From Spirobacillus cienkowskii (lineage in GTDB: Bacteria; Bdellovibrionota_B; Oligoflexia; Silvanigrellales; Silvanigrellaceae): a stretch of 64,000 nt of DNA. A program made the translations under genes and the position numbers. The first letter of the stretch is position 1. Each line of letters opens with the position of its first letter. The notes below the pieces were generated by a model. That model did not search any database and was not told the DNA's origin. It saw only the letters and a list, made by a program, of their open reading frames with translations. This document shows, piece by piece, positions 1-17,407 of this stretch. The DNA lies in NCBI RefSeq assembly GCF_037081835.1, contig NZ_CP146516.1, positions 2,109,577 to 2,173,576 on the forward strand, given 5' to 3'.

Positions 1-95
1 CGTTATATTGGATCATTCTGCTAATGATACCGGCTATTTTTTTTTAATTATAGCGTAGTTTCTTTAATTTATAATAATTATGGAGAAAATTCAAA

Positions 96-1631
96 ATGTG
101 GCCACTTTCTGGAAAAGAAATTTATCGAGCCATTACTCATGATGAAAATAGTTTAAATGTGTTTGACAATTGTATAATACTTGGAGTTTCTAGCGACAGT
201 CGAAAAATTACACCAAATAATCTATTTGTTGCAATTCAAGGTGAACAATATGATGGACACGCTTATTTAGCAGAATGTTTTGAAAAGGGTGTGCAAATTG
301 CTTTAGTTCACAAAGATTCCGAATTTATTAAAAAGCTATCACCAGAAAATCAAAAAAAATGTATCCAAGTAGAAAATGTCATAGATAAATTTAGAAATTT
401 TGCAAAATTTATGCGCAGTAGATTTGATTTTCCTGTCATTGCCGTTGCTGGAAGTAATGGCAAAACAACTACAAAAGAAATGATTTTTAGTTTGTTAAAT
501 AGCGAAACAGAAAAAGTCACTAAAACCGAAAAAAGCGAAAATGGCTTTTTAGGAATGGCATTAACTCTTTGTCAAGAAGCTCACAATATCAGCTCTCCTC
601 CGCATGCCCTAATTCTAGAAATTGGAATTGATGAAGTTGGCGCTATGGCACAACATGTGTCACTCAGCACACCTCATATTTCTTTAATTACTGCATTAGG
701 ACCAGAGCATCTTGAACGATTGATTGATTGGGACACAGCAGCCTCAGAAGAACTTATTTTATTTCAAAACCTGAATTCTAAAAAAATTTGGCAACTTAGT
801 GACCAAAAATTGCTTACAGAATTTAATCACCAAATTGAAAAAAATTCTTGTAATGACAAAAATGCAATTTCTACAATTAATGATTATATTATTATCGAAA
901 AAAATAATTTTGAAAAAATTGAGAATAAAGACAAATTATTAAATTTTGTAAAAAAAATTATTATTTGGGAATTAACTCAATCATCTAGTTTTGATAACAC
1001 AGTTAAATTTGAAATTCTACCAAAAGAAAATCATTACAAAAATTGTGAATTTAAAATATTGATGCCCAGCATTCATAACGTGACAAATTTTGCATTAGCA
1101 TTTTCTGTCGCTATAATGCTTAATAAATCGATAAATTATATACAAGAGTGCTGGAAAAACTTTACAATACCGCCAATGCGCTCAAATATTAAAAAATTAA
1201 AAAATGGCAATATCTTATTTGATGATACATATAACTCAAGCCCTATGAGCCTTGAAGCCGCTCTGCACTTTTTTGATAATAAAGATTTTTACAATAAAGA
1301 AAAACTTATTATTCTTGGCGATATGCTAGAGCTTGGAACTGAGTCAAAATACTGGCATGAAAAAATTTTTTATTCGCTTAAAAATTTACAGAACTCCTAC
1401 TTGTGCCTATACGGCTCTGGAATGTATGATTGTTATAAGCTTCTTAAAAATATAGAAGATGAGCTAATTTCTCTTAATAATACTAAGATTTATTGGCTTG
1501 CAAAATCTGAAGATCCCAATAAGTTTTTAAGTGAAATTAAAGTAAATCTTTTAGATTTTTTAATCCTTGTTAAAGGAAGCCGGGGCATGAAACTTGATAG
1601 GATAGTAAAAACAATAGAAAAAAATTTTTGA
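96..1631 (+). CDS. murF: UDP-N-acetylmuramoyl-tripeptide--D-alanyl-D-alanine ligase (MurF), with a lineage-specific N/K-rich insertion
   Basis: Mur ligase P-loop GSNGKTTTKEM. C-terminal MurF-type motif ILGDMLELG...H. 511 aa ORF. GGAG RBS upstream of the ATG at 96. Confidence 0.8.
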   Translation: MWPLSGKEIYRAITHDENSLNVFDNCIILGVSSDSRKITPNNLFVAIQGEQYDGHAYLAECFEKGVQIALVHKDSEFIKKLSPENQKKCIQVENVIDKFRNFAKFMRSRFDFPVIAVAGSNGKTTTKEMIFSLLNSETEKVTKTEKSENGFLGMALTLCQEAHNISSPPHALILEIGIDEVGAMAQHVSLSTPHISLITALGPEHLERLIDWDTAASEELILFQNLNSKKIWQLSDQKLLTEFNHQIEKNSCNDKNAISTINDYIIIEKNNFEKIENKDKLLNFVKKIIIWELTQSSSFDNTVKFEILPKENHYKNCEFKILMPSIHNVTNFALAFSVAIMLNKSINYIQECWKNFTIPPMRSNIKKLKNGNILFDDTYNSSPMSLEAALHFFDNKDFYNKEKLIILGDMLELGTESKYWHEKIFYSLKNLQNSYLCLYGSGMYDCYKLLKNIEDELISLNNTKIYWLAKSEDPNKFLSEIKVNLLDFLILVKGSRGMKLDRIVKTIEKNF

Positions 1632-1684
1632 TTATACTGCACTCTATCTAACATACGCAGTTTTGAATTTCGGGAGGTGTATTT

Positions 1685-1969
1685 ATGCGACCTGAAGTAC
1701 TTCAAAATGAACTATTAAAAATTCTTGAAGGCTCTTTTACCGAAAGATCATCTCATAACAAAGATGATTTTGTTCTTTCTCTCAACGAAGATCAAATGTT
1801 TAAGCTATGGAATATACTAGGAGAAGAACTTGGGATTGATCTTTCTCTCGCAACAGCAGATCAAAGAAAACTTTTGTTTGAATCGTGCGAAAATGGCAAA
1901 CACATTGCTGCAAGAGATTTTAGTTCATTGCTGTGGTTAGTTTATTACAGTGATGCGGCGTATCAATAG
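1685..1969 (+). CDS. hypothetical small protein (94 aa) between murF and the PBP gene
   Basis: ORF with a strong GGAGG RBS 7 nt upstream of the ATG. No recognisable motif and no TM segment, so it is not FtsL-like. Confidence 0.4.
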   Translation: MRPEVLQNELLKILEGSFTERSSHNKDDFVLSLNEDQMFKLWNILGEELGIDLSLATADQRKLLFESCENGKHIAARDFSSLLWLVYYSDAAYQ

Positions 1970-2261
1970 CTCATTTTAATATTTTCCTTTACATTTTTTA
2001 AATTTTTAGAATATTATGTATTTTTAAATATTTTTAATTTGATCTATTAAAATTAAACAGTTAAAAATATTTTTTAACTTTAAAATTGAAAAAAAGATTT
2101 TAATCGGTTACAGCTATCTTTTGTTATTAAGCACTTAGTTTTCTAAGATAAATTTATATTTTAGAAAAAAGAATTGCATTTTTTAAAAACCATCCGGTTT
2201 TATATAAAATTAAAAATTATAAATTAAATGAGCTGCTTAAATAATAAACGAAAGTATAAAA

Positions 2262-4076
2262 ATGAAGAATTATCGTCACAACACATCTCTACTTAAAAAA
2301 ATTAAAAATTATTTTGACCCTCGTAATATCAAATCAACTGCAAATTTTCAAAAAAGAGCATATGTTATGAGTGCTATTTTTTTTGTCGCACTCATTTGCA
2401 TTTTAATTAGGTATGCATGGCTGACTTTTTTTCCAACTTCAATTAGAACAAAACTCATTGCAACAGGTTCAAAACAATTTGAAACTAGTATAAATTTATC
2501 AAATCCTAGAGCAACAATCACCGACCGCAACGGAAAAGTTCTTGCCGTAAGCGTGCCGAGCACAAGCATTTTTTTGTTAACTAAAAAAATGCCGAAAGAT
2601 AAAGAAACACTTGAAAAAGTTTCTAAACAACTAAAAATTCCTCTGCAAGAATTATTAAGTTACCGTAATGAAAAAAAAAGTTTTATTTGGATTAAACGTC
2701 AAATGACGCAGAGTGAGTTTCAAAAAATTGGATCGTTAAAAAAATGGAAACACTTTATAGATACTGTTGATGAGCCCAAACGCGTTTACCCAGAAAAAGA
2801 CCTTGCTGCACATCTTATTGGTTTTGTAGGATCAGACGGACAAGGACTAGAAGGTATAGAAAAAGTTTACAACTCAAGACTGAGCGCAAAAGCAATTAAA
2901 GTTGATGTTGCACGAGACGCCATGGGCAGAACCTTTGTTTTAGCTCCCAATGATGCTTCAAAACCTGCACAACATATTCCGCAACTAAACTTGTCAATTG
3001 ATATTTCAATTCAACAATTTGCACAACATTCATTACGCGAAGGTGTCATACGCTCCAAAGCAAAAGGCGGAAGCGTAATTGTTGTCGATGTCACCACCGG
3101 AGAACTCCTTGCAGTGGCAAGTTACCCAACCTACAACCTAAATACTCCTCCACAAAACGATCCCGAAGCAAGACGCTTTCGTCCTGTGATGGACGCAATC
3201 GAATTAGGCTCTGTGGCAAAACCGATGTGGATTGCCAAAGCTCTTGATCTTGGGCTGATTTCTCCGAGCACACGCTTTGATGTGACAGGAGGAAAAATGG
3301 CAGTACCGGGTGGTTTTATTCGCGACGATCACCCCATGAAAATATTAGATACTCAAGGAGTTTTAAGATATAGTAGCAACATTGGTATGTATAAAATCTC
3401 TCAAAAAGCAGGACGAGAAAAATTTTATGATTCACTTATGAAAGTGGGGTTTGGTCGCTCGCCTGGCACAGGGTTTCCTGGCGAATGGAAGGGACGAATT
3501 CATAGGCCAGAAACCTGGAGCGAAATGCGTTTTGCAAATATGTCTTTTGGCCAAGGTTTTGCCATATCACCATTACAGCTTGCGCATGCTTTATCAATTA
3601 TTACTGGAGGGGGCGTGGATAGAGGAATCAATCTACTAAAGCGCGAAAATTACTCTTCAGAAGAAACAGAAGTTGGTCCTCCACTTCAATTTATCTCCCC
3701 AAAAACGAGTAAAGTTATTGCCAGAATGATGGGTAACGTTACAGAAGAAAGTAACGCAGGAAGAATTCCTGGAGTATTTGTTGGTGGCAAAACGGGAACG
3801 GCACAAATTTGGTCAAAAAAAGATAAAGCCTATTCAGAGCGCACAGCCGTTTTTGAAGGAATTATTCCTGCAAACAATCCAAAGCTCGCAATCATTGTTG
3901 TTCTTGACGAAGTGAAAGTACGCCCCGCATATGGCGCACTACTGGCAGGACCCGTGTTTTCTGATATTGGCAAAAAAACAGTTCACTACTTAAACTCGCA
4001 AGGAATATTTAATGTTGAACCATTCACCAATGCCTATCTAGATAAAAATATAGACAAAAATACACCTATTCAATAG
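2262..4076 (+). CDS. ftsI: class B penicillin-binding protein transpeptidase (FtsI/PBP3-like; PBP2 not excluded)
   Basis: N-terminal TM anchor. Transpeptidase motifs SxxK (SVAK), SxN (SSN) and KTG (GKTGTA). Adjacent to murF. Confidence 0.75.
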   Translation: MKNYRHNTSLLKKIKNYFDPRNIKSTANFQKRAYVMSAIFFVALICILIRYAWLTFFPTSIRTKLIATGSKQFETSINLSNPRATITDRNGKVLAVSVPSTSIFLLTKKMPKDKETLEKVSKQLKIPLQELLSYRNEKKSFIWIKRQMTQSEFQKIGSLKKWKHFIDTVDEPKRVYPEKDLAAHLIGFVGSDGQGLEGIEKVYNSRLSAKAIKVDVARDAMGRTFVLAPNDASKPAQHIPQLNLSIDISIQQFAQHSLREGVIRSKAKGGSVIVVDVTTGELLAVASYPTYNLNTPPQNDPEARRFRPVMDAIELGSVAKPMWIAKALDLGLISPSTRFDVTGGKMAVPGGFIRDDHPMKILDTQGVLRYSSNIGMYKISQKAGREKFYDSLMKVGFGRSPGTGFPGEWKGRIHRPETWSEMRFANMSFGQGFAISPLQLAHALSIITGGGVDRGINLLKRENYSSEETEVGPPLQFISPKTSKVIARMMGNVTEESNAGRIPGVFVGGKTGTAQIWSKKDKAYSERTAVFEGIIPANNPKLAIIVVLDEVKVRPAYGALLAGPVFSDIGKKTVHYLNSQGIFNVEPFTNAYLDKNIDKNTPIQ

Positions 4077-4157
4077 CTTGACTTTGATATATCAATTATG
4101 CATAGATACCTAGCCACAGTCAACTTTTAAGGCTGATTAAGCTTTAAGTTTAAATAA

Positions 4158-4232
4158 GGACTCATAGTGAAGTGGATATCACGCAGGCCTCCGAAGCCTG
4201 AAGCGCAAGTTCGATTCTTGCTGGGTCTGCCA
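4158..4232 (+). tRNA. tRNA-Arg (anticodon CCG), 75 nt with encoded CCA
   Basis: Manual cloverleaf. Acceptor GGACTCA/TGGGTCT, which has two G-U pairs including 1:72. D-stem GTGA/TCAC. Anticodon stem CAGGC/GCCTG with loop CTCCGAA (U33 and A37 present). T-stem GCAAG/CTTGC with T-loop TTCGATT. Discriminator G, then CCA. Confidence 0.6.
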
Positions 4233-4242
4233 TTTAGATGTA
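4208..4242. repeat. left copy of an imperfect direct repeat (tRNA 3' half plus 10 nt downstream); att-like
   Basis: agttcgattcttgc[tgggtc]tgccatttagatgta here, against agttcgattcttgc[ccagcc]tgccatttagatgta at 6702-6735. 14 + 15 identical nt around a 6-nt divergent core. Confidence 0.7.
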
Positions 4243-4402
4243 TTTTTACTTTCTCTGTTTTTTGTTAAATAATTAATCTTTTTACCTAATATAGAGTTTC
4301 TGTTAAGATATAACTATTTTAAATCTCTGAATCAATAAATTCACTTCAAAAACTATTATAGTTTTTCATTCAATATTTCATTTGCAAAGTAATCACTCAA
4401 AA

Positions 4403-5692
4403 TTAGTCAAAGGAAATAGATTTTTTATAGATTTTTTTTTCTTCAATACTATTCATTAACGCAATTAAGCTTCTTCCAACTGCATGGGATAAATTCACTG
4501 GTACAGCATTACCAATTTGTTTATATTGACTATTTATAAATCCAACAAAACTCCAAGCATCAGGAAAAGTTTGAATTCTAGCATATTCTCTGACTGTTAA
4601 TGGTCTAGTTTCTTCAGGATGACAACGTTCAGTCTGATTCTGAGCAGGAGCACAGGTAAGAGTTAAACTCGGCTCATCCCAAGAAAGCCTACGAGCCATA
4701 CCAGTTTTACCTCCTCCAAGAAAATAACTTTTTTTCATGTACTCTCGTTGTATTTTATCTGGTAAATCTTTCCAATATCCTCCTTGAGGAACTAAAGACA
4801 TTATTTCTTTTTTTCTTTTCACATAAACTTGTCCTTCTGAGTTGGGCACATCAGAATCAAATAATTCACCTGCTTTTAGCGCATCTTTTAATGTAAAAAT
4901 TTTTTTATAAGGTGCTGGCCAAGAAAATTTTGAATATTTAAAAAGATCATTCCTAATTCCAACTAAAAATAAACGTTCCCTTTTTTGAGGAACTTGATAA
5001 AAGATAGCTTTCAACACGTGTGGTTCAATTAATGTATAACCCAATTCGTGTATTATTGATTTCATAGAGGCAAGGGTTCTACCTTCATCATGCTCTAACA
5101 AGCCTCTAACATTTTCCCCCAAAAAAACCTTTGGTTTTATTTCTTTAATTGCTCTTGCAAATTCAAAAAATAATGTTCCTCTTGCATCTTCAAAACCAAG
5201 TTTATTTCCGGCATAAGAAAAAGCTTGGCAGGGAAATCCACCAGATACAAAGTCAATATTATTAAATTTAGTAAAATCTACATTTTTAATATCACCTTCT
5301 ATAACATTCCAACTAGGTCTATTAAACCGAAGAGTTTTACAGGAGTCTTTGTCTACTTCATTTACAGCAATTGTGGTAAATCCAGCTTTTTCCAATCCAA
5401 TCGCTAAACCTCCCGCACCAGCAAATAGTTCAATAGATTGATAAGGTCTTAATGGCTTTATTTTTAATTCCTTATCCCAATTTGAATATGCCATTTCTTT
5501 AAATATTTTAAATTCATCAAGCTCTGATAAATTTGATATACTATATTCTTTTCTGCCAGTTATAGGGTTTTTAACTGGTTTGATTTTTTCGTTTTTTTCC
5601 CACTTTGATATTGTAGATTTAGATACAGAAATAATATCCGCAAATAATTCTGCTGAAATTGTGTTATCGTTATTGCTGAATATTGAGACCAT
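4403..5692 (-). CDS. DNA (cytosine-5)-methyltransferase with an N-terminal HTH domain
   Basis: Motif I FAGAGG; motif IV GFPCQAFSYAG; motif VI GENVRGL; motif VIII QKRERLF; motif X GNAVPV. N-terminal ~60 aa is HTH-like (ISVSKSTISKWEK). The probable true start is the ATG at 5692 (MVSIF), which has an AAGGA RBS. The ORF track extends to 5716. Confidence 0.85.
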   Translation of the reverse strand: MVSIFSNNDNTISAELFADIISVSKSTISKWEKNEKIKPVKNPITGRKEYSISNLSELDEFKIFKEMAYSNWDKELKIKPLRPYQSIELFAGAGGLAIGLEKAGFTTIAVNEVDKDSCKTLRFNRPSWNVIEGDIKNVDFTKFNNIDFVSGGFPCQAFSYAGNKLGFEDARGTLFFEFARAIKEIKPKVFLGENVRGLLEHDEGRTLASMKSIIHELGYTLIEPHVLKAIFYQVPQKRERLFLVGIRNDLFKYSKFSWPAPYKKIFTLKDALKAGELFDSDVPNSEGQVYVKRKKEIMSLVPQGGYWKDLPDKIQREYMKKSYFLGGGKTGMARRLSWDEPSLTLTCAPAQNQTERCHPEETRPLTVREYARIQTFPDAWSFVGFINSQYKQIGNAVPVNLSHAVGRSLIALMNSIEEKKIYKKSISFD

Positions 5693-6431
5693 TTTTAAAT
5701 CCTTCATACTTTTCAAAAGTCAGTAAATATATACTTTTTAATAAGTGCTTATCAAGTTTATTTAAATTATCAAATATTTCATTTGAAGCTTTTACAGGAT
5801 TTTCATTATTTACGACATCATCTATAATTATAGGTATTTTTTCACATAATTTTTTAAAGGCAAATTTGTCTCCAGTAACAATTTCATAAAATCTATCCAT
5901 AGATACTTTCCTTATGCGAGGATCGCATACCTTGACTTCGTCAATGGTAGTCTCCCAAGGTATATTTTGACTTTTTTTGGCAATAACTTCAACCAAAAAA
6001 CTGGTAGCATTAGGATTTTTCAAAATTGCGCTTTGTAATTTGATATATACGCTTTTAGCTCCTCCAGAGTTCATTGTATTATGCTTATTTTTTATTTCTA
6101 CATAATAATGTTTATCTTTATTAATTACATCAAAACCTGCTTTTGGAACTTCCCAACCACTAAAAAATTTAAAGATATTTTGATGAAAATATCCTATTTG
6201 ATTGCTATTAGATTTATCAATCTGCCTTATTACTTCTTGCTCAATTAAGTCTTTTATCGGCATTCTATAAATTTTAGCATCGAAGGTCAATTTTATTGGA
6301 TCTACTAAATTACTATTAAATTTATAAAAATCTATTGTGAGTCTATAATCCAAAACTGTTTTTTTTACATGATTGTAAATATCCTCATCGCTAATAAAAC
6401 CCAGATTATACTCTTTTTTTTGTATTTTCAT
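5670..6431 (-). CDS. putative restriction endonuclease (PD-(D/E)XK-like), partner of the C5-MTase
   Basis: 253-aa ORF immediately upstream and co-directional with the MTase, overlapping it. Candidate catalytic motif FDV...(x11)...VEIKNK, which reads as D...ExK. Unknown family. Confidence 0.45.
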   Translation of the reverse strand: MKIQKKEYNLGFISDEDIYNHVKKTVLDYRLTIDFYKFNSNLVDPIKLTFDAKIYRMPIKDLIEQEVIRQIDKSNSNQIGYFHQNIFKFFSGWEVPKAGFDVINKDKHYYVEIKNKHNTMNSGGAKSVYIKLQSAILKNPNATSFLVEVIAKKSQNIPWETTIDEVKVCDPRIRKVSMDRFYEIVTGDKFAFKKLCEKIPIIIDDVVNNENPVKASNEIFDNLNKLDKHLLKSIYLLTFEKYEGFKNGLNIQQ

Positions 6432-6701
6432 TTTTTACCTTTTTCAATCCTTTGAAAAGTTAAATATCACTTCATGGTGGGCTATATACTAGAAGTGTCT
6501 ATTTATTGCAAAAAATAATAAATTTTAAATTCAATAAACTCTACCAACCATACCGTACTAGCTCCACAAAAAATTTTGTAATCCCAAATTCATTGCTTAA
6601 CAGATTGGCAGGTTTTTTACTCGTTTGAGGTGTCTAAATTGATATTATAAAATATTAAAATCAAATAAATTTTAAGCAAAAAGAAAAAATGAGACAAAGT
6701 C

Positions 6702-6735
6702 AGTTCGATTCTTGCCCAGCCTGCCATTTAGATGT
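6702..6735. repeat. right copy of the direct repeat (partial tRNA 3' end; cannot fold as a T-arm); attR-like remnant
   Basis: See the left copy. The upstream sequence does not complete a tRNA. Confidence 0.7.
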
Positions 6736-6843
6736 ACTTTTATTCCTTTTCATTTTAAAGAAAGATACAAAATTATGCAAATTTATAATCCACTCTATTT
6801 ATAACTAAATATAAATAATATTTTTTATATAAAGAAAATTTAA

Positions 6844-7343
6844 ATGGATGATTTTATAATAAAAGAGCTAAAAATATTTCAACTAAATGAATTTAAAAAA
6901 TTATTATCAACAGTTTTTTATTATGAAAAAACTAATACTTATAAATATTATTTAAGTTTATTTCCTATTTTCTTGCAAAAAATAATTAGAATGTTTGGAC
7001 ATGTTAGATATTCTAAATATTGGGTCGCCTTAAATAACAAAAAAGAGATAGTGGGTATTATTGGGATTTATTTTAGAAATTGCGACACAAAAGATGTCCT
7101 ATGGGTTAGTTGGTTTTGTGTCGAAAAAAATATAGAAGAAAAGGAATTGGAGGAATACTTTTAAATCATGTAATTTTATTTGCTAAAGAAAATAATAAAA
7201 CAAAATTTAAGATATATACTTCAAATCATGATAACGAAAAAAATGCACAGTATTTATATGAAAAATTTGGATTCTTGGTAATAGAAAAAAAAGAATTTGA
7301 ATCTGGATATGTTAAAATATATAGAGAAAAAAAAATTAACTAA
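6844..7343 (+). pseudogene. GNAT family N-acetyltransferase disrupted by a frameshift in an A7 homopolymer
   Basis: Two overlapping ORFs (6844-7164 and 7110-7343). The second contains GNAT motif A (RRKGIGGILL). The frames meet at gtcgaaaaaaatatag. Confidence 0.55.
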
Positions 7344-7403
7344 TTTTTTTCATCCTCAAAAATTTGAGTACCAATGAATTTTAAAAATTCAGGAAAAATT
7401 CGT

Positions 7404-7736
7404 TTAAATTCCTTTAATTATTTTTTTTCTTTTTTTAAAACTAATCTCTAAATCACATTCCATCAACTCTGCTATTTGCGACATGGTCATAAGTGAAATG
7501 TTCTCTGTCTCATCCATCAGTCTATTGTATTGTCTGTTTGAAATATCAATTTCTCTACAAAATTGGTTCACTTCGATTTTATTTTTATTTCTAAATTTTG
7601 TAACATTTTTAATAATTTCAAGTTTATTTTTAGTAAATAAATCTTTTATTATCTTCCATTTTTCATCATATATTTTGTCTGTCTTGTGCTCAATTAAAGA
7701 AAACGATTTAGTTTTATTTTTTTTAGTATTACTCAT
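7404..7736 (-). CDS. small XRE-family HTH protein (110 aa)
   Basis: C-terminal HTH-like segment FCREIDISNRQYNRLMDETENISLMTMSQIAELMECDL. A 42-aa ORF (about 7960-7835, minus strand) lies upstream on the same strand. Confidence 0.4.
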   Translation of the reverse strand: MSNTKKNKTKSFSLIEHKTDKIYDEKWKIIKDLFTKNKLEIIKNVTKFRNKNKIEVNQFCREIDISNRQYNRLMDETENISLMTMSQIAELMECDLEISFKKRKKIIKGI

Positions 7737-8236
7737 AAAAAATTCTGCTTTTTTTATATTGACACTCTGAATTAAAATACCTATTTTAAATTAATTTTTC
7801 ATGATATATTTCTGTTATCACATTTAAAACCCTACGTAGTATTTTTTCATTTTTCCATTTTATTTCTTACTTTCTCAGAAATTGATAAAATAATTTTTGC
7901 TCTTAATTTAGCTTTTTTCTTAGCATTACTTAATTCTTCTTCTGTGTAAAACTTTTCCATTAATTTATCGAATTTTATTGTTTTTTTTGTCTTCACTTTT
8001 TATCTCATTAAGTCTATTAATTTATCTCCACTATTTAATAATAAAAGAGGGAGAAAATTCAAGTTTCTTAGTTTATGATTATAACTATACCCCTTATAAT
8101 CAAAATTGTACAATTTTGATTATAAGGGGTCAAGGGAAAATCAACAAACAGAATAATGACTGTAGCCAAAACCTAATCTTACAAAAAATATCTCATTTTC
8201 CACAAACTCTAACAAAAATATCATGATTAATGATAC

Positions 8237-9577
8237 TTATTTAAGAGTCTCAACATTTAAATTTGTATTCAATGAAACAGAAATAACATATTCGTTGTTT
8301 AAATATTTTTTATTCACCCAATTTTCAAAATCTTTAATATCAAAGTCTTTTGCTAATTGATTTATTTTACCTTGATCATAAATATTATTTTCACCAAGCA
8401 TTACATTATAATATAGATAATCAAGTTTCTTATCATTATCAAATAAATAATACTCTTCATCAATTTTTTGTTCTGCATTTAATACATTGCTAACTGATTG
8501 CTTAACAATTTCATTAAAATTTTCATTGTTATCTTTTAAATTCATAATACTAAACGAATCTAAAAAATAATTGTTACTAGGAAAATCCATGTTTTCAATC
8601 ATAATAATTTTATGCTTATCATTTTTTGCATATATAGAATAATTATTTGAAATAGCTTTACTTAAAACTGATCTGTAGATAATATCTTTTGCAGTGTAAT
8701 TAAAATTTGGAAATAATTTTATATCTAAATTCATTTTACTAATTTTTTTATCTTTTACCTCACAAGAAATATCTTGATTTACCAAATTTAGCCCAGCTAA
8801 TACAAGTTTTTTTACATCGACATAAGGAACAGGAGAACCATTGGGCAAAACATCGACAAACTTTGACAGCTTGTTAGCGATAAATTCTGGTTTTAGTTTA
8901 CTTTCAACAATAATAATAATATTATTAGAAGTAAAAAATTTAGAATAATATTCTTTTACTTTTTTATTATTAACACGCAAAATCTCTTCATTTGGGTCTC
9001 TTTCTATTAGTTTTTTATCTTTTAAACATTTAAAAAAACTTAAAAAAAAGCTATTATTAAACTTTAAATCCATATAATTTCGTACATCATTTTTTGCTTT
9101 TTCAATACCAGAATTTGACAAATCTGGGTTTTTAATTGCCTGAAATGCATTGCTAATTACAAAATCAAATTTTTCTGGATCAAACTCATACGAAAATTTT
9201 ATGTAATTGAACGTTTGAAAAAGTTCATCATTTGCTACATAAAAATCATTTAATTTAGAAGATGACTTACTATTTAAAAAGATTTTCTCTGACAAATATG
9301 GATTTAAGGGAATAGCATACACTTTTTCTAATTCTCTACTATTTCCAGCATTGACTAAAATATTTAAAATAACCTCATCAGTCTCTCCTTCAAGGACAAC
9401 CAATTTTAAACCATTTTTAAATTTATATTTGTAAAACGACTGATTTTCATCATTATAAAAACTATCTTTACCAATAAATTCGAAAAGATTATTTTTTTTT
9501 CCCTGATTTGCTTTAACAGAAAGGTTAAAGAACATAAATAATAAAGTTATTAAAATAATACGCACAAAAATCTCCAT
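8237..9577 (-). CDS. secreted M16 (pitrilysin)-like protein lacking the HxxEH zinc motif; probable non-catalytic homologue
   Basis: Signal-peptide-like N-terminus. The segment FKNGLKLVVLEGETDEVILNILVNAGNSRE resembles the M16 N-terminal domain, but there is no HxxEH. The first ATG is at 9577. Confidence 0.3.
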   Translation of the reverse strand: MEIFVRIILITLLFMFFNLSVKANQGKKNNLFEFIGKDSFYNDENQSFYKYKFKNGLKLVVLEGETDEVILNILVNAGNSRELEKVYAIPLNPYLSEKIFLNSKSSSKLNDFYVANDELFQTFNYIKFSYEFDPEKFDFVISNAFQAIKNPDLSNSGIEKAKNDVRNYMDLKFNNSFFLSFFKCLKDKKLIERDPNEEILRVNNKKVKEYYSKFFTSNNIIIIVESKLKPEFIANKLSKFVDVLPNGSPVPYVDVKKLVLAGLNLVNQDISCEVKDKKISKMNLDIKLFPNFNYTAKDIIYRSVLSKAISNNYSIYAKNDKHKIIMIENMDFPSNNYFLDSFSIMNLKDNNENFNEIVKQSVSNVLNAEQKIDEEYYLFDNDKKLDYLYYNVMLGENNIYDQGKINQLAKDFDIKDFENWVNKKYLNNEYVISVSLNTNLNVETLK

Positions 9578-9803
9578 GTAAAAATAGTTAAAATACAACC
9601 TTGATATAAATACAGAAGTTTTTATATATTTTCAATTTTTATAATTTAAATATTTTTTTAGATTATAAAATATTTTTTACCATAACCATCATTTATGTGT
9701 TTTAACTTTGACATTAAATTAAAAAAAAATTATATTAAAAATTAAGCAAAAAATAAAATAAATTTTCTTGCTTAATTTTTAACAAATAAATAAAGAGAAT
9801 GTC

Positions 9804-10358
9804 ATGAAAAATAAAATAAATTTTCTTACTTTATGTCTTACTTTATATGCAGGTCAATCAGCTTACTCTTACGGATCTTATATATTTTGCACAAATAGCG
9901 CAGTCTCTGGATCAGATTACACGTTTAAAGGTATCGGCTGGAATTGGGCAAAAGGAACTAACGGTAGCAACTTACAAAATGCAGCTATCAATAATTATCA
10001 AAACCTTGTAAAAGTTTATCCTAAGGGGACTTGGATTAACGGTTCAACAGATCTCAATACATCATATAACTACTATCTACTCCTCGATAGTATCTTTGAT
10101 AATAAAAATGCCGCAATTAATTTTTGCGAAGCATTAAAACAAAAATGCCAAAGTGATTGGGGTCCAACATTTACTGGAATTGGAGTTTCAACATGGGATA
10201 TCCCTCATGCAGCATGGGGTTCTGTTTCTGTAAAATACAAAGTGCAATCTAATCGTAGTGAACGGCTTGCTTGCAAAAATTGGAAACACACAGAATACGA
10301 ACCAATTTATTACACACCAGAGGATTATATGTATACTTTTACACCATTAATGCATTAA
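9804..10358 (+). CDS. secreted Cys-containing hypothetical protein (184 aa)
   Basis: Cleavable signal peptide MKNKINFLTLCLTLYAGQSAYS. Several Cys residues. Convergent with the DUF2235-like gene. Confidence 0.45.
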   Translation: MKNKINFLTLCLTLYAGQSAYSYGSYIFCTNSAVSGSDYTFKGIGWNWAKGTNGSNLQNAAINNYQNLVKVYPKGTWINGSTDLNTSYNYYLLLDSIFDNKNAAINFCEALKQKCQSDWGPTFTGIGVSTWDIPHAAWGSVSVKYKVQSNRSERLACKNWKHTEYEPIYYTPEDYMYTFTPLMH

Positions 10359-10545
10359 GTTAATACCATAAAAAAAATTACATATGTTTTTATCACTAAC
10401 ATATGTAAAATTTTTATTACTTATACTATTTAGACAACACAATCCCAATATTAAAAAATACTGATAATATTATAGTAAAAATTCGCAGCACTACCGTTGA
10501 TGTAACTAGCAATAGAGCATATTTTGCTGCAAATTCATTAAAAAT

Positions 10546-12300
10546 TCATAATCTCCATTCAGAAGAATGAATGCCAAATTTCTTTAAAGTAAAATTTAAT
10601 TTTTTTATTTCATTTGAAGTTAATAAAAATTTAACTTTTTTAAGAAAATAAATACTTTTACTTCTTTGTGAAAAGTTTGCCATGAGTTGAAAATCACTTT
10701 CTATATCACAAATTTTATTATTAAAATTGGAAAGTTCAATAGAACATCTATGCATCATAAATTCAAACATATAGCTATAAATAATTGATATCAAATTTAA
10801 TCTGTAATCTCTAACGCTTTTTTGCAAAACACGACTTAATAAATTTGTATGTCCAGGAAAAAAGAATTGATATAACTCTTTATAGTAATAAATATTTGTG
10901 CTTTTAAATGGAACATTATTAATATTGCTAAAATCGTCAATTATAAATCCCTTTTTGGTTTCAATAAATTTTTTAAAATCATATTCAATAATATGTTGTT
11001 TTGTTCTTGGATAGTTTATTAATATATCATATTCTTTGCTTAATTTAAAAGTCTCGTATTCATCTCCACTCATAAACATAAAAATTTCAGGATAAGAAAG
11101 AAAAAAACAAAGTTCATGATGCTTATTAATGAATAATTTAGATTTTGTATAACTCGAAAATTGATTTTTTACATGTCTGCTATTATTTAATCCTAAAAAA
11201 GCCTGCAAAAATTTATTTTTTTTATTAACACTCTGAATTGACAAACAAGTATTCCTACTAATATTATAAAGAAAATCTGAACTATAATAAACTTCGCAAA
11301 TATCTCTAAAAGACCTAATTGTAAAAAATTCGGTATAAATATTTATCTTATATTTTTGCATTTTTAAAAATATATATAACATTTTTATTCCATCTTTATT
11401 GGCTCCAGCGATATTTAAATAATTAATAAATTCATTATATTGTTTTAGTTTTTGATACTCAGAAATACTTTTTGAATACATGGGTGAATTTGGAAAAAAG
11501 TTTTTTAAAACACCAGATAACCATATGCAATTTTGCAAGTGATCATCCGGAAACGGTAAAAAAACAAATTTTGTTTTACTTGACAAAAAGTTTAATGATC
11601 CAGAATCTAATGGCTCAAAAAAACGGGTCTTTTCTTCTACCGCAAGAGAAATTAGACATCTCCGAACACAGTCTGGAATTGTTGTGGTAGAATCAATTAA
11701 TTCTGTTGTTTGTGAAGATCTTGCGGAAATAAAATTGCCTGGACCAGGAACAGGATCTATTAAAAACAGATCCATACAAAATTTATTTAAATATTTTTGT
11801 GCAATGTAATTTGCGGCTATAATACATGTTGTTCCTCCCCGACTAAATCCAATTAGATTAATTTTAGAAATTAAAATTTTTCTTTCTAAATGTAAATAAT
11901 CTATAATTTTTAATGCTAATGTTGCATTTTGTGTCATTCCATTTCCAGTAACCTTATCCTTAAATTTCATTATCCCGCTATATTTATTATCTTTGTCTCG
12001 TGTTGTTAACCGAGACTTTGTGGGATCAAACACAATATTTGTAACTTCTTTATGAGTATGAGAGATTGGTGATATAGAAACACCATCAAAACAATAGTAA
12101 TATTTATCAATACTGGTATTTATACTCTCTTGTCTTAAAGGAACATTGTGAGGCTTAGATATTGTAAAATCAAGGTAAATAGATGTTTGCTCCCAATACA
12201 AATCTGTGCCAGAAAAAATAAAGTAAATCTCAATATTTTTATTGCCAATAAATCCTAAATTTTCATTATTTAAACAATATTGATTATTTTCTAAATCCAT
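10546..12300 (-). CDS. DUF2235-like alpha/beta hydrolase (GFSRG nucleophile elbow); possible lipase/phospholipase of the Tle1-like superfamily
   Basis: GxSxG motif in the DUF2235-type context: INLIGFSRGGTTCIIAANYIA. 588-aa ORF. The ATG at 12300 has a GAGAG RBS. Confidence 0.45.
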   Translation of the reverse strand: MDLENNQYCLNNENLGFIGNKNIEIYFIFSGTDLYWEQTSIYLDFTISKPHNVPLRQESINTSIDKYYYCFDGVSISPISHTHKEVTNIVFDPTKSRLTTRDKDNKYSGIMKFKDKVTGNGMTQNATLALKIIDYLHLERKILISKINLIGFSRGGTTCIIAANYIAQKYLNKFCMDLFLIDPVPGPGNFISARSSQTTELIDSTTTIPDCVRRCLISLAVEEKTRFFEPLDSGSLNFLSSKTKFVFLPFPDDHLQNCIWLSGVLKNFFPNSPMYSKSISEYQKLKQYNEFINYLNIAGANKDGIKMLYIFLKMQKYKINIYTEFFTIRSFRDICEVYYSSDFLYNISRNTCLSIQSVNKKNKFLQAFLGLNNSRHVKNQFSSYTKSKLFINKHHELCFFLSYPEIFMFMSGDEYETFKLSKEYDILINYPRTKQHIIEYDFKKFIETKKGFIIDDFSNINNVPFKSTNIYYYKELYQFFFPGHTNLLSRVLQKSVRDYRLNLISIIYSYMFEFMMHRCSIELSNFNNKICDIESDFQLMANFSQRSKSIYFLKKVKFLLTSNEIKKLNFTLKKFGIHSSEWRL

Positions 12301-12701
12301 AGTAACTCTCAATATTTAACCTAGTTTGTAAAATTTTTAAATTTACCTTTAAATAAAAAAAAGTAAACTTATTTAGATCTTTTATTAGCATAAAAATTAA
12401 ACTTATACATTTAAAAAAAATATAATTGATTTTATAAAAACAAATAATTATTAAAAATTAAACTAAAAAATTTAGTAATAACATATTAATTTATAAAAAT
12501 TTTTACGAAATTTAAATTTAAAAATTGTAAAGTTCTAAAAAATTACAAAATTCTGTTTTTAAAAAGTTTTCTAACAAATTTAAGATTTTTTTATTTATAT
12601 GCTAGAATTAATGCATAAACTTAAAATACAGTGAGACTTAATGACATTTATTGCTATAAAGAATCGTTGTTATAATAAAAGTCGCGACTTTGAGGATTAA
12701 A

Positions 12702-14585
12702 ATGTTTCGTTCAAAAAGCCCTATTGTCAGAAAAACAGATAAAATGACTTCATTTGTGACAGTACTATGGAGATATCTTATCTTATCTAGTGGATTTTGG
12801 GTTACGTTTTCCATAATTTGTTTTATATTTTTATATAATCCAGATTATGGTACCAATTCTAAAATAGACTTTTTTTCCTCATGGTTAGTCACTTTTCAAT
12901 TTTTATTAGTCATAATTGGAGTTATCATTTTTTCTGGAATAATTGGAGCTATGATTTCTATACCTTCAATTATTCTTAAAATCATGATGAAAATTAGAGT
13001 TGATAAGAAAATTAACAAAGGTAGACAACCAATAATACTGATATATTTATCAACGTATTTTCCAATATTATTTTGTGTTTTTTCTCATATTATTGTATTG
13101 CTTATTAGTACAAGCACTGCTCCCCAATATATGCGAAATTGGTTTGATGATGATTATAAGATATACAAAACTCAACAAAAAATTTATTCAAAGTTATTTG
13201 AAACAAAATCATCTGAAATTAATAAAAAGTGGGAAGTAATTGCAAAAAAAATTTCTAATGATTCAAATATTGTTTTTCTATTACCTCATCATATCGTTAA
13301 TAAAAAAAATTTATTAAAAGAAACAAGAAGTTTACTAGATTTTGAAAATAAGTGGATTATAAATTCGGCAACTAAGGAATCTATGATTTCATCAATATTA
13401 AGCGAAACGGAATTTCCTAGGGAAGATTTGTTTTCTCCAATTAAGTTTGATGAAATACCAAAAAAAAATAATAAAAGCCAACCTAATAGCTTAACATTTA
13501 TTGGTATAAATGGAAAATCTGCTTTTAATTTTAATAATTTATTTAACAATTCTTATGTAAATTTAAATATACAAAATTCTTGGTTTAATGTTTTTTTAAA
13601 TAGACTAGCATTATCGCAACCGCATCTGCTATTTTTCTTTAAAACTGGTTTTATCACGTCTTCATTTCAAGCTTGGAAATGGGAATATCTAATTAATAAC
13701 AATGCAGATTTGCTAAGCTCATACTTAAATCATATAAATAGTAAAGATTCAAAAATAGTACATAACAATTTTTTACTATATTTAACTGAATTTGAGGCAA
13801 ATAGCGAAAAAAATTTATTATCTTCAATTGATTGGCCTAATAATATTAAAAACTATGAAGTTGACTACAATATTAAAAAAATTGATTTTTATTTATCTAA
13901 TTCTATTAAAACATTAACTAAATTTAATCATAAAAATATTTGGATAGTTCCTTATAATAGCAAAGACAACTCTATTCAATTAGGTGTTGGATTTTCAAAT
14001 TATAACTCAAACGACAATTTAATGACATCAGAAATATTAGGACAAATCATATTTCAAGAAGAAAATTCTCAAAACTGTCATTCATTCACAACCAACTACG
14101 ATCCTATAAAAGTAGATAAAGAATTATTGCAAAAAAACAACTATCTTCTTGACACACTTAATCAAAAAAAATTAGGTAAACCATCTATTTCTAATAAATA
14201 CTATTTAATAATTAAAGATAGCATTAAATATGGAGTATTTTGTCAATCTTCTAAAACACCTCCTTATTTAGCAATTAAAAATGAGGAATTTTTTAGTAAA
14301 CTAATTAATTATCAAGTTTTTAAAAATTTAAACTATCAAATTTTTATTGCTAATGAGAAAAAATTGAAATCAAACGATAAAGATCAATCAATTCAAAATA
14401 AAAATCCAAAAATTGAGTTAAATTTAAATAATTTTTACAGGCAATTTTTTATATATAAAATTCAATCAGATAATGCTATTACATTTTCTGAAGTATCTGA
14501 AACAGAATATGCCGAATTTATTAAAAACTATGGCACTGAGGTTAAAAATATTTTTCATTCTTCAATTAATTATTTAATTAAATAG
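12702..14585 (+). CDS. polytopic membrane protein (about 4 N-terminal TM helices) with a large C-terminal soluble domain; hypothetical
   Basis: Hydrophobic segments in residues about 20-140. GAGGA RBS before the ATG at 12702. Only 10 nt separate it from the next gene, so an operon is likely. Confidence 0.5.
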   Translation: MFRSKSPIVRKTDKMTSFVTVLWRYLILSSGFWVTFSIICFIFLYNPDYGTNSKIDFFSSWLVTFQFLLVIIGVIIFSGIIGAMISIPSIILKIMMKIRVDKKINKGRQPIILIYLSTYFPILFCVFSHIIVLLISTSTAPQYMRNWFDDDYKIYKTQQKIYSKLFETKSSEINKKWEVIAKKISNDSNIVFLLPHHIVNKKNLLKETRSLLDFENKWIINSATKESMISSILSETEFPREDLFSPIKFDEIPKKNNKSQPNSLTFIGINGKSAFNFNNLFNNSYVNLNIQNSWFNVFLNRLALSQPHLLFFFKTGFITSSFQAWKWEYLINNNADLLSSYLNHINSKDSKIVHNNFLLYLTEFEANSEKNLLSSIDWPNNIKNYEVDYNIKKIDFYLSNSIKTLTKFNHKNIWIVPYNSKDNSIQLGVGFSNYNSNDNLMTSEILGQIIFQEENSQNCHSFTTNYDPIKVDKELLQKNNYLLDTLNQKKLGKPSISNKYYLIIKDSIKYGVFCQSSKTPPYLAIKNEEFFSKLINYQVFKNLNYQIFIANEKKLKSNDKDQSIQNKNPKIELNLNNFYRQFFIYKIQSDNAITFSEVSETEYAEFIKNYGTEVKNIFHSSINYLIK

Positions 14586-14594
14586 GTTTAAACT

Positions 14595-17327: not shown

Positions 17328-17407
17328 TTTAGATAGGCAAAATTTTCCACGTATAAATAAAATAAATGACGAAATTATATATATAAAATATTAAATGCAG
17401 AGATTTT

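Follow-up and report, generated by a model that had tools for sequence, protein, structure and literature searches.

A restriction-modification (R-M) islet adjoining the tRNA-Arg(CCG) gene was analysed in a 64-kb stretch of the genome of Spirobacillus cienkowskii (NZ_CP146516.1, positions 2,109,577-2,173,576; hereafter referred to as the window, to which the coordinates below refer). The segment 4243-6736, located downstream of ftsI and bordered by two copies of a tRNA-derived direct repeat, is probably what is left of a small integrative element that had inserted at tRNA-Arg(CCG), has since decayed, and now lacks an integrase, resembling in this respect the cis-mobilizable elements (CIMEs). 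This reading is based on a set of direct observations, that is, the repeats themselves, the homology of the flanking arms to those of related elements, the insertion polymorphism of one such element in a sister strain, the occurrence of this R-M pair within an element that is complete, and the lack of any integrase gene in the islet. The features of the locus are listed in Table 1.

The tRNA-Arg(CCG) gene was the sole tRNA gene called by ARAGORN in the window, in agreement with the tRNA named in the initial annotation, and besides this gene no Rfam match was obtained at E<=1 within 3500-8000. A search with the AGTTCGATTCTTGCNNNNNNTGCCATTTAGATGTA pattern detected exactly two occurrences in the 64 kb, at 4208-4242 and 6702-6736; a repeat match was obtained in none of 100 dinucleotide shuffles (chance expectation, 0 pairs). 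The repeat unit common to both copies is the 35-mer AGTTCGATTCTTGC......TGCCATTTAGATGTA, of which 31 positions out of 35 are identical, and consists of the last 25 nt of the tRNA plus 10 nt past CCA. It starts 2 nt ahead of the T-loop TTCGATT (4210-4216) and covers the T-loop, the 3' half of the T-stem, the 3' strand of the acceptor stem (4222-4228), the discriminator base, CCA, and 10 nt more. The earlier observation that the 3' part of the tRNA plus 10 nt past CCA recurs 2.5 kb downstream was thus reproduced by the pattern search and withstood the 100 shuffles, as was the start of the second copy at 6702, but its end, given as 6735, is at 6736. The second copy was also rightly considered unable to form a tRNA arm, because CCAGCCT faces the 5' acceptor strand GGACTCA with three mismatches, and it is not a tRNA, since neither ARAGORN nor Rfam called one at 6702-6736. 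Nor is the repeat a widespread motif within the window, neither it nor the arm being present elsewhere in the 64 kb. Two independent Logan assemblies both reproduce the junction between the tRNA and the methyltransferase gene, and one of them (L004, from ERR12084912) spans both copies of the repeat.

The function of the repeat was revealed by a sister strain represented by the metagenome-assembled genome (MAG) GCA_965189885.1, with an identity to the window of 99.5-99.6%. Contig 168 of this MAG (L001) matches window 1-4245 at 99.5% identity and then continues into different DNA, of which the tail aligns with the left (P') arm of an element of Pigmentibacter (see below) and stops 6 nt short of the stop codon of the integrase. 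In contig 36 (L005), the match to the window extends leftward from 10400 through the endonuclease gene (R) and the methyltransferase gene (M) to 4201 at 99.6% identity. To the left of the islet this contig carries, instead of the body of the tRNA, a non-coding arm (approximately 140 nt), then a region of GC-rich repeats, an 86-aa open reading frame (ORF) with a helix-turn-helix (HTH) motif, and a truncated ORF. The inserted DNA, herein designated element X, has ORFs that match those of L011, a contig from activated sludge, at 87%. An exact 38-mer (AGTTCG...GATGTATTT) is common to both junctions of X, and the order in the MAG is tRNA, element X, 38-nt att, M, R, and attR, in a tandem arrangement. 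The Logan contigs L002 and L004 are without the X insertion, and the window represents the unoccupied state for X; element X is therefore polymorphic in its presence and absence among these strains. The R-M islet, on the other side of the 38-nt att, is present in all four strains at 99.5% identity or higher. The repeat is a working integration target, and the regenerated end of the tRNA is still a live one. Since the same 35-38 nt constitute the duplicated target of X, the assignment of the second copy as the attR of a site-specific integration, as proposed in the initial annotation, is supported, and the arm family and the location of the R-M genes beside the arm in L011 are in line with this assignment. 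A circular attP junction of X, or of a composite of X and the R-M islet, would read ...CAAAG(T/C)CAGTTCGATTCTTGC......GTATTTGTGTTTTC, and in a circle formed by the R-M islet without X the arm and the core would be joined to TTTTTACTTTCTCTG.

Complete members of the same element family were identified elsewhere. On L011, the genes are arranged in the order of arm, R, M, 1.2 kb of non-coding DNA, the 86-aa HTH ORF, Toprim, VapE-like helicase, tyrosine integrase, and an Abi_C/HEPN gene (Toprim_3, 6.6e-07; VapE-like, 1.4e-16; PF00589 Phage_integrase, 2.8e-20; PHROG integrase, 6e-42), with the arm at one end cut by the contig end. In Pigmentibacter sp. JX0631 (L013; CP123622.1 647626-668783) and Fluviispira multicolorata (L014), the genes for methylmalonyl-CoA mutase, MurF, a 94-aa ORF, FtsI, and tRNA-Arg(CCG) are followed by an integrase-bearing island with attR located 13.6 kb (Pigmentibacter) and 10.5 kb (Fluviispira) from the tRNA; the FtsI region of the window is approximately 70% identical in DNA sequence to both. 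The layout of the complete element is tRNA/attL, a P' arm of approximately 320 nt, the integrase gene directed toward the tRNA, VapE, Toprim, the 86-aa HTH, variable cargo, a right (P) arm of approximately 290 nt, and attR. A distal module of the P arm, approximately 130 nt long and with GCCGATGAAGCCGAGAAG motifs, is found a second time, inverted (nhmmer, 5e-11 and 3e-10), within the P' arm; the copies are located at 3278-3585 and 16625-16760 of L013 and at 1716-2008 and 11973-12093 of L014. Motifs of the type (A/G)TCCCAA(A)T are found in both arms of the complete elements; the modules and these motifs are candidate arm-type binding sites, the arms being presumably protein-binding DNA. The right arm was also considered as a structured RNA, and this was rejected with a consensus energy by RNAalifold of approximately 0. 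A total of twelve homologues of the integrase were obtained at E<=1e-30, every organism-named one of which belongs to Silvanigrellaceae, and the element family is, as far as seen here, confined to this family of bacteria. A search for FtsI among GTDB representative genomes gave no relative, and the species itself is apparently missing from this set. The tRNA-Arg(CCG) genes of Pigmentibacter and Fluviispira differ from that of the window at four positions; the acceptor stem is fully Watson-Crick in these two (GGACCCA/TGGGTCC), and that of S. cienkowskii contains two G-U wobbles, G1-U72 and U5-G68.

The cargo of the islet was described in the initial annotation as only a C5 methyltransferase plus an endonuclease ORF, and this was borne out by the matches to PF00145 and PF09553 and by the lack of an integrase gene between the repeats. 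R and M overlap on the same strand, R being upstream of M. The likely start of M is ATG at 5707 or 5692; all the canonical C5 motifs are there, GFPCQAFS, GENV, QKRER, and GNAVP being readable in the translation, and its N-terminus gives a weak HTH match (HTH_3, E 0.0016, under the curated cut-off). Among more than 5000 homologues of R, the closest (80% amino acid identity) is that on L011. Window 6513-4437 aligns with L011 251-2326 at 81% identity, and window 6646-6568 with L011 14-92 at 91%; R, M, and approximately 80 nt upstream of R are thus collinear between the window and L011. The R-M genes without the repeat, which would have spoken against the association of the two, were not seen in relatives, the only close R-M relative with a readable context being located inside the cognate element. 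With three integrases of the family as queries, tblastn detected no integrase in the 64-kb window, and no homologue of VapE, Toprim, or the 86-aa HTH protein was detected there.

The right end of the islet retains the proximal module of the P arm, which is approximately 88% identical to the right end of element X, 91-92% to L011, and 83% to Pigmentibacter, and the conserved block of this module is kept in Fluviispira as well. Since 6568-6701 matches the arm of X, the right end of the islet is the end of an element and not a stray tRNA fragment. The left end retains only a short piece of the P' arm, and the distal module of the P arm is replaced (Table 1). Fuzzy matching and an nhmmer profile gave no further att or arm remnants downstream in the window. 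Among viral contigs, an 18-mer of the arm gave two matches, both by chance, and the att pattern gave none. A side observation at this end is that the window and L004 differ by six single-nucleotide polymorphisms in 280 nt (6557-6836) versus seven in approximately 5000 nt elsewhere, an approximately 10-fold higher density.

Table 1. Features of the tRNA-Arg(CCG) locus (window coordinates)
Feature	Position	Strand	Remarks
tRNA-Arg(CCG), intact, integration target	4158..4232	+	ARAGORN; Rfam tRNA 64.2 bits
att repeat copy 1 (attL core)	4208..4245	+	4208-4242 match copy 2; 4208-4245 is the 38-nt target duplicated by element X
T-loop TTCGATT between T-stem GCAAG/CTTGC, inferred strand-exchange (overlap) region	4210..4216	+	Onset of identity in att pairs
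Residual left (P') arm, ~24 nt	4243..4266	+	Similar to left ends of element X and L009; BLAST of L001/L009 stops at 4264-4266
Spacer, just past the presumed deletion junction	4267..4402	.	No match in BLAST of L011, L013, L005, L009
C5 cytosine DNA methyltransferase (M)	4403..5716	-	PF00145 E 4.9e-86; PADLOC MTase_II 1.3e-117
Eco47II-family type II endonuclease (R)	5670..6431	-	PF09553 RE_Eco47II E 6.2e-83, profile positions 1-201 of 202
Region upstream of R	6432..6567	.	6432-6513 homologous to L011; 6514-6567 replace the ~158-nt GC-rich distal arm module
Proximal module of right (P) arm, ~135 nt	6568..6701	+	Conserved block TCCCAAATTCATTGCTT.ACAG...GAGGTGT
att repeat copy 2 (attR), displaced tRNA 3' fragment, T-loop to CCA + 10 nt	6702..6736	+	Same orientation as the tRNA
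Variant block CCAGCC for TGGGTC (acceptor 3' strand)	6716..6721	+	Counterpart 4222-4227
Right flank, species-specific	6737..6830	.	L015 3525-4415 aligns with window 7752-6830; homology resumes at 6830, before the GNAT gene

The position of the crossover was examined by comparison of the att pairs. The onset of identity is AG plus the T-loop in all of the window, the MAG, Pigmentibacter, and Fluviispira, and from there the identity extends over 38 nt for X and over 26 nt for Pigmentibacter, but over AGTTCGATTCTT only for Fluviispira. The T-loop is flanked by symmetric sequences, GCAAG-TTCGATT-CTTGC in the tRNA and G(T/C)CAG-TTCGATT-CTTGC in the attR copies (complementary at 4/5 positions). Since the T-loop with the symmetric stem halves is the only segment common to all the att pairs, the strand exchange probably takes place in the T-loop, as judged from the sequences compared; the T-loop or 'T-stem region' is a recognised sublocation class of tRNA-targeting integrases (PMC4383910; bioRxiv 10.1101/2020.11.02.365908). 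If so, the part of attR to the right of the T-loop would be the displaced 3' end of the host tRNA.

This placement bears on the central block in which the two copies were noted to differ, TGGGTC in the tRNA and CCAGCC in the second copy. The block itself stands, but not all of its six positions differ; only four are true differences (6716, 6717, 6718, and 6720). Three of the four changes correspond to an exact 5-nt inversion from CTGGG to CCCAG (chance, approximately 1 in 27), which does no more than suggest a 5-nt micro-inversion plus one transition as the origin of the block. The chance of four random substitutions in a 35-nt sequence all landing inside one stretch of 5 nt is P = 0.0024, and because such clustered changes are improbable as independent events, one complex event is the likelier origin. 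The tRNA and all other attR copies of three genera read TGGGTC, which is required by the 5' acceptor strand, and the original fragment therefore should have read TGGGTC, in which case CCAGCC would be a later change in a functionless fragment and not a mark of the crossover. Between the two origins of the block that the initial annotation left side by side, later change is thus retained, and the crossover is set aside on account of the onset of identity at the T-loop in three genera. The copying of the block from another host's tRNA was also considered, and is unsupported by a 24-mer search of the tRNA 3' end with CCAGCC, in which no exact match to GTTCGATTCTTGCCCAGCCTGCCA (0 matches) was obtained among GTDB representative genomes. 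In L004, L005, and the strain from ERR14374452 (L012), a T-to-C change is present at 6704 within the T-loop of attR, and another T-to-C change at 6700.

Altogether the following history may be proposed. An ancestral element resembling L011 would have integrated into the 3' half of tRNA-Arg(CCG) by exchange in the T-loop, using the T-stem halves as symmetric core sites, and would have renewed the T-stem, the acceptor strand, and the CCA terminus of the tRNA, pushing out the original 3' end as attR. The left two-thirds of the element, beginning approximately 24 nt into the P' arm and ending at the 3' end of M, would then have been deleted, with a further loss of the P arm's distal module. What remained would be attL with 24 nt of P' arm sequence, followed by M and R, one half of the P arm, and attR. 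The displaced, functionless tRNA fragment would have gained thereafter the clustered 4-nt change and, in sister strains, the T-to-C change in the T-loop. In one sister strain, a related integrase-bearing element has landed at the regenerated end of the tRNA, leading to formation of the tandem array. The direction of evolution in this account, by deletion and not by assembly, is presumed, as is the immobility of the islet today.

Several observations weigh against this history. No empty site for the R-M islet, in which the tRNA is followed by the flank from 6737 onward with a junction reading TGGGTCTGCCATTTAGATGTACTTTTATTCC, was found, all the right-flank matches being occupied loci, and integration of the islet is thus argued from what element X shows; the att core of L011, with its version of the block (TGGGTC or CCAGCC), is missing because the contig ends before it; and the 15 nt past the variant block are still identical in both copies, which is somewhat surprising for a freely decaying fragment. 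The GC content of the islet (0.289) falls at the 33rd percentile of that of the window (0.312 +/- 0.05), and GC3 and codon usage are likewise within range, so that the islet matches the rest of the window in composition. The compositional skew of the islet against its flanks, suggested in the initial annotation as a check, therefore does not discriminate; the composition test is uninformative, as might be expected of an element that moves between hosts which are all AT-rich. The direction of change is also unproven, and a mini-element could have been fused later with an integrase element. This fusion route is allowed by the 13.6-kb island of Pigmentibacter, in which two integrase genes of the family (67% nucleotide identity) are accompanied by one recognisable att pair, indicating that internal att loss occurs; the island suggests two tandem elements fused after such a loss.

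The same finding is shared by the view that the islet never had an integrase, but was a minimal cassette between att sites that the integrases of neighbouring elements moved, either in trans or in cis, the state of L011 being secondary through tandem accretion and internal att loss (gene capture). Accretion, in the order of tRNA, X, att, R-M, and att, is indeed seen in the MAG strain, and accretion and cis-mobilisation of integrase-less elements have been documented for ICEs (integrative and conjugative elements) as well as for CIMEs (PMC5704250). A cassette dependent on an integrase in trans would, however, be expected to keep the arm sites, and in the islet the P' arm is reduced to 24 nt and the distal module of approximately 130 nt, which is present in inverted orientation in the two arms of complete elements, is missing. 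Since both arms of the islet are cut short, deletion of the integrase is favoured over delivery in trans, and of the two possibilities raised in the initial annotation for the missing integrase, loss is retained in preference to the delivery of the R-M pair in trans. Moreover, the R-M genes and the arm are collinear with L011 including the approximately 80 nt upstream of R, for which one ancestral arrangement is the simplest explanation, and the integrase genes of a 95% relative (see below) are in the process of decay. A primary cassette without integrase is thus unlikely. A little less likely still is that the variant block came in with attP, the exchange taking place 3' of the block in TGCCATTTAGATGTA (an asymmetric, 3'-end sublocation) and the block marking the boundary of the crossover region. 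The 3'-end sublocation is a known class among tRNA-targeting integrases, the identity is perfect for 15 nt to the right and 14 nt to the left of the block, and the four clustered differences are improbable as independent substitutions (see the P value above). Against this model, the Fluviispira pair shares nothing beyond AGTTCGATTCTT and the identity in Pigmentibacter ends at GCCAT, leaving the T-loop alone common to all; the identity starts precisely 2 nt before the T-loop; symmetric flanks are given by the T-stem, with no inverted symmetry around the block or the CCA segment; and, by exact 24-mer matching, no tRNA of GTDB representatives ends in ...CTTGCCCAGCCTGCCA as a model for such an attP. 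Finally, the repeat might be unrelated to site-specific recombination, being a chance or dispersed motif or a duplication caused otherwise by the R-M insertion, as might be supposed from the lack of an integrase in the islet and in the 64-kb window and from the undistinctive composition of the islet. This is hardly credible given the chance expectation of 0, the restriction of motif plus arm to this place in the window, the exact duplication of the same target by X in a sister strain, and the conserved arm preceding the second copy; this alternative is effectively refuted by the comparative data. Beyond the decayed remnant proposed here, it is conceivable, although doubtful, that the family gains or swaps defence cargo by accretion and fusion, addictive R-M systems selecting for changes that disable att, and that the Eco47II and DpnII systems are alternative alleles of one slot maintained by this cycle. 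In such a cycle, an integrase-bearing element would arrive at the regenerated tRNA end beside a cassette without integrase, as in the MAG, and loss of the internal att would then turn the cassette into cargo adjoining the P arm, as in L011. The CCAGCC block and the T-to-C change in the T-loop of L004, L005, and L012 may be candidates for such att-disabling changes; of these lineages, the MAG (L005) has a documented neighbour that encodes an integrase, and ERR14374452 (L012) presumably has one.

The alternative content of the slot was found in the 95% relative. Two loci retrieved by a metagenome scan using the att pattern (L009 and L010) are 95% identical to the window across MurF, FtsI, and the tRNA, and the 95% relative was constructed from L009 and L015, joined by a 229-nt overlap at 99.6% identity. 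Past a tRNA-Arg identical to that of the window, L009 carries approximately 80 nt of an X-type left end with ATCCCAAT motifs, followed by an integrase fragment (residues 190-272; tblastn, 8e-32; Pfam, E 0.011) and a D12-class Dam methyltransferase (6e-23). L015 carries an N6_N4 methyltransferase, a DpnII endonuclease, and then an integrase fragment comprising residues 124-141 and 318-385 with in-frame stops (2e-30), and rejoins the flank of the window at 6830, the GNAT gene, the HTH gene, and homologues of the 453-, 184-, and 588-aa ORFs being present at 87-93% identity. No arm or attR was found in L015 at the right flank. The integrase genes at this slot are at different stages of decay, and the stretch from the tRNA to the GNAT gene is a replaceable defence slot, occupied by the Eco47II-type system in one lineage and by the DpnII-type system in the other.

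R-M genes on decayed islands integrated at tRNA genes are a well-known pattern. The islet is a new example of this familiar class, a decayed tRNA island with R-M genes at a hotspot, and involves no new mechanism; the parent family is a previously undescribed but conventional group of integrase/primase elements of Silvanigrellaceae. As in the tRNA islands catalogued by Islander (Williams 2002; Hudson et al. 2015, PMC4383910), an intact tDNA is accompanied by a displaced 3' fragment in the same orientation, the tRNA is regenerated by the island, the block of identity begins at the T-loop, and tandem arrays are present in sister genomes. Unlike these islands, the 2.5-kb interval contains no integrase, so that the islet would be rejected by the Islander filter; it is also unusually small, and its displaced fragment carries a clustered 4-nt change. 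CIMEs and tandem accretion have been described in ICESt1-type systems (Pavlovic 2004; Bellanger 2011; reviewed in PMC5704250). The islet agrees with the definition of CIME (PMC5704250) in that the recombination genes are lost and attL and attR are kept, the arrangement in the MAG corresponds to the 'accretion' state of the same review, and the same cargo is present in a complete relative. It differs in that the parent element is not conjugative, with no relaxase or type IV secretion system seen and with a layout of integrase, primase, and helicase like that of a satellite or a cryptic replicative island. In addition, the arms of the islet are shortened, making cis-mobilisation doubtful, and the T-loop core is intact in the window with four mismatches in attR.

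With P4-like phage satellites, those resembling phage-inducible chromosomal islands (PICIs), and comparable integrase/primase islands with hotspots of defence genes, the parent (L011 and L013) shares the tyrosine integrase, the small HTH protein, the Toprim primase, the VapE/D5-like helicase, integration at a tRNA, and a variable cargo slot (R-M or other), with Abi_C/HEPN beside the integrase in L011. It is different from these satellites with respect to genes for capsid redirection, packaging, or helper interaction, none of which was recognised among its few ORFs, where no dedicated search was made, and with respect to its integrase family, found only in Silvanigrellaceae. With the R-M systems of the Eco47II/Sau96I type (GGNCC, m5C), the islet shares a full-length PF09553 endonuclease, an adjacent and overlapping C5 methyltransferase, and a local depletion of GGNCC, and it differs from the characterised systems in that its specificity is predicted from sequence and that R carries a nonsense mutation in one sister strain. 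The locus thus defines the tRNA-Arg(CCG) downstream of ftsI as a variable hotspot of defence islands in Silvanigrellaceae, a little-studied family of Bdellovibrionota, together with the family of elements cognate to it, which have an integrase, VapE, Toprim, the HTH protein, and an arm at each end, the arms sharing inverted modules. The same slot is occupied by GGNCC-type and GATC-type R-M systems in close relatives, and the natural series of complete element, tandem array, and decayed remnant is usable for the study of capture, fixation, and erosion of defence cassettes.

The specificity of the Eco47II family is GGNCC (PMC10305163), and GGNCC is the predicted recognition site of R. A total of 21 GGNCC sites were observed in the window against 47 +/- 7 expected from dinucleotide shuffles (0.45x, or 2.2-fold depleted; z -3.8). 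It was the most depleted of the motifs of the same composition, the controls CCNGG, GCNGC, and CGNCG being not depleted, and GGCC was likewise low in the window at 0.63 of the expectation. The depletion is compatible with a long-resident GGNCC system, but is no proof of it. GCGC, CGNCG, and GCNGC are over-represented across the window. In L004, otherwise 99.75% identical, a C-to-A change at window 6236 produces the nonsense mutation E66* in R, and M is intact apart from one F-to-S substitution; the R-M system of the L004 lineage is decaying to an orphan methyltransferase. Promoter and terminator scans of 4050-6950 gave no more than the shuffled expectation.

The right flank of the islet is itself of low GC content (0.21-0.27 over approximately 6830-17330), 'normal' genes starting from approximately 17.4 kb, and its ORFs of 453, 184, 588, 631, 910, 420, and 343 aa gave no Pfam or PADLOC match. 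Together with the integrase fragment of L015 abutting the GNAT gene, this suggests that 6830-17330 is an older, fully decayed island at the same tRNA; no att or arm remnant was found in the window at its far end. The GNAT gene (6844-7343) is frameshifted at approximately 7116-7149 in the window, frameshifted at another place in L005, and intact (180 aa) in L015, and these frameshifts look like independent pseudogenisations. A short inverted duplication is present at 8072-8130 versus approximately 7956-8161. The 110-aa HTH protein of the flank (7404-7736, minus strand; in a locus with 7737-8230) is Xre/HigA-like, and its homologues at 80% are located after a Gp49/HigB-like 120-aa gene on plasmid-like contigs with TrwC/TrfA (L018-L023); a further homologue, at 74%, is present on a Mu-like phage contig (L024). 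With no toxin homologue for it in the window, the protein looks like an orphan antitoxin.

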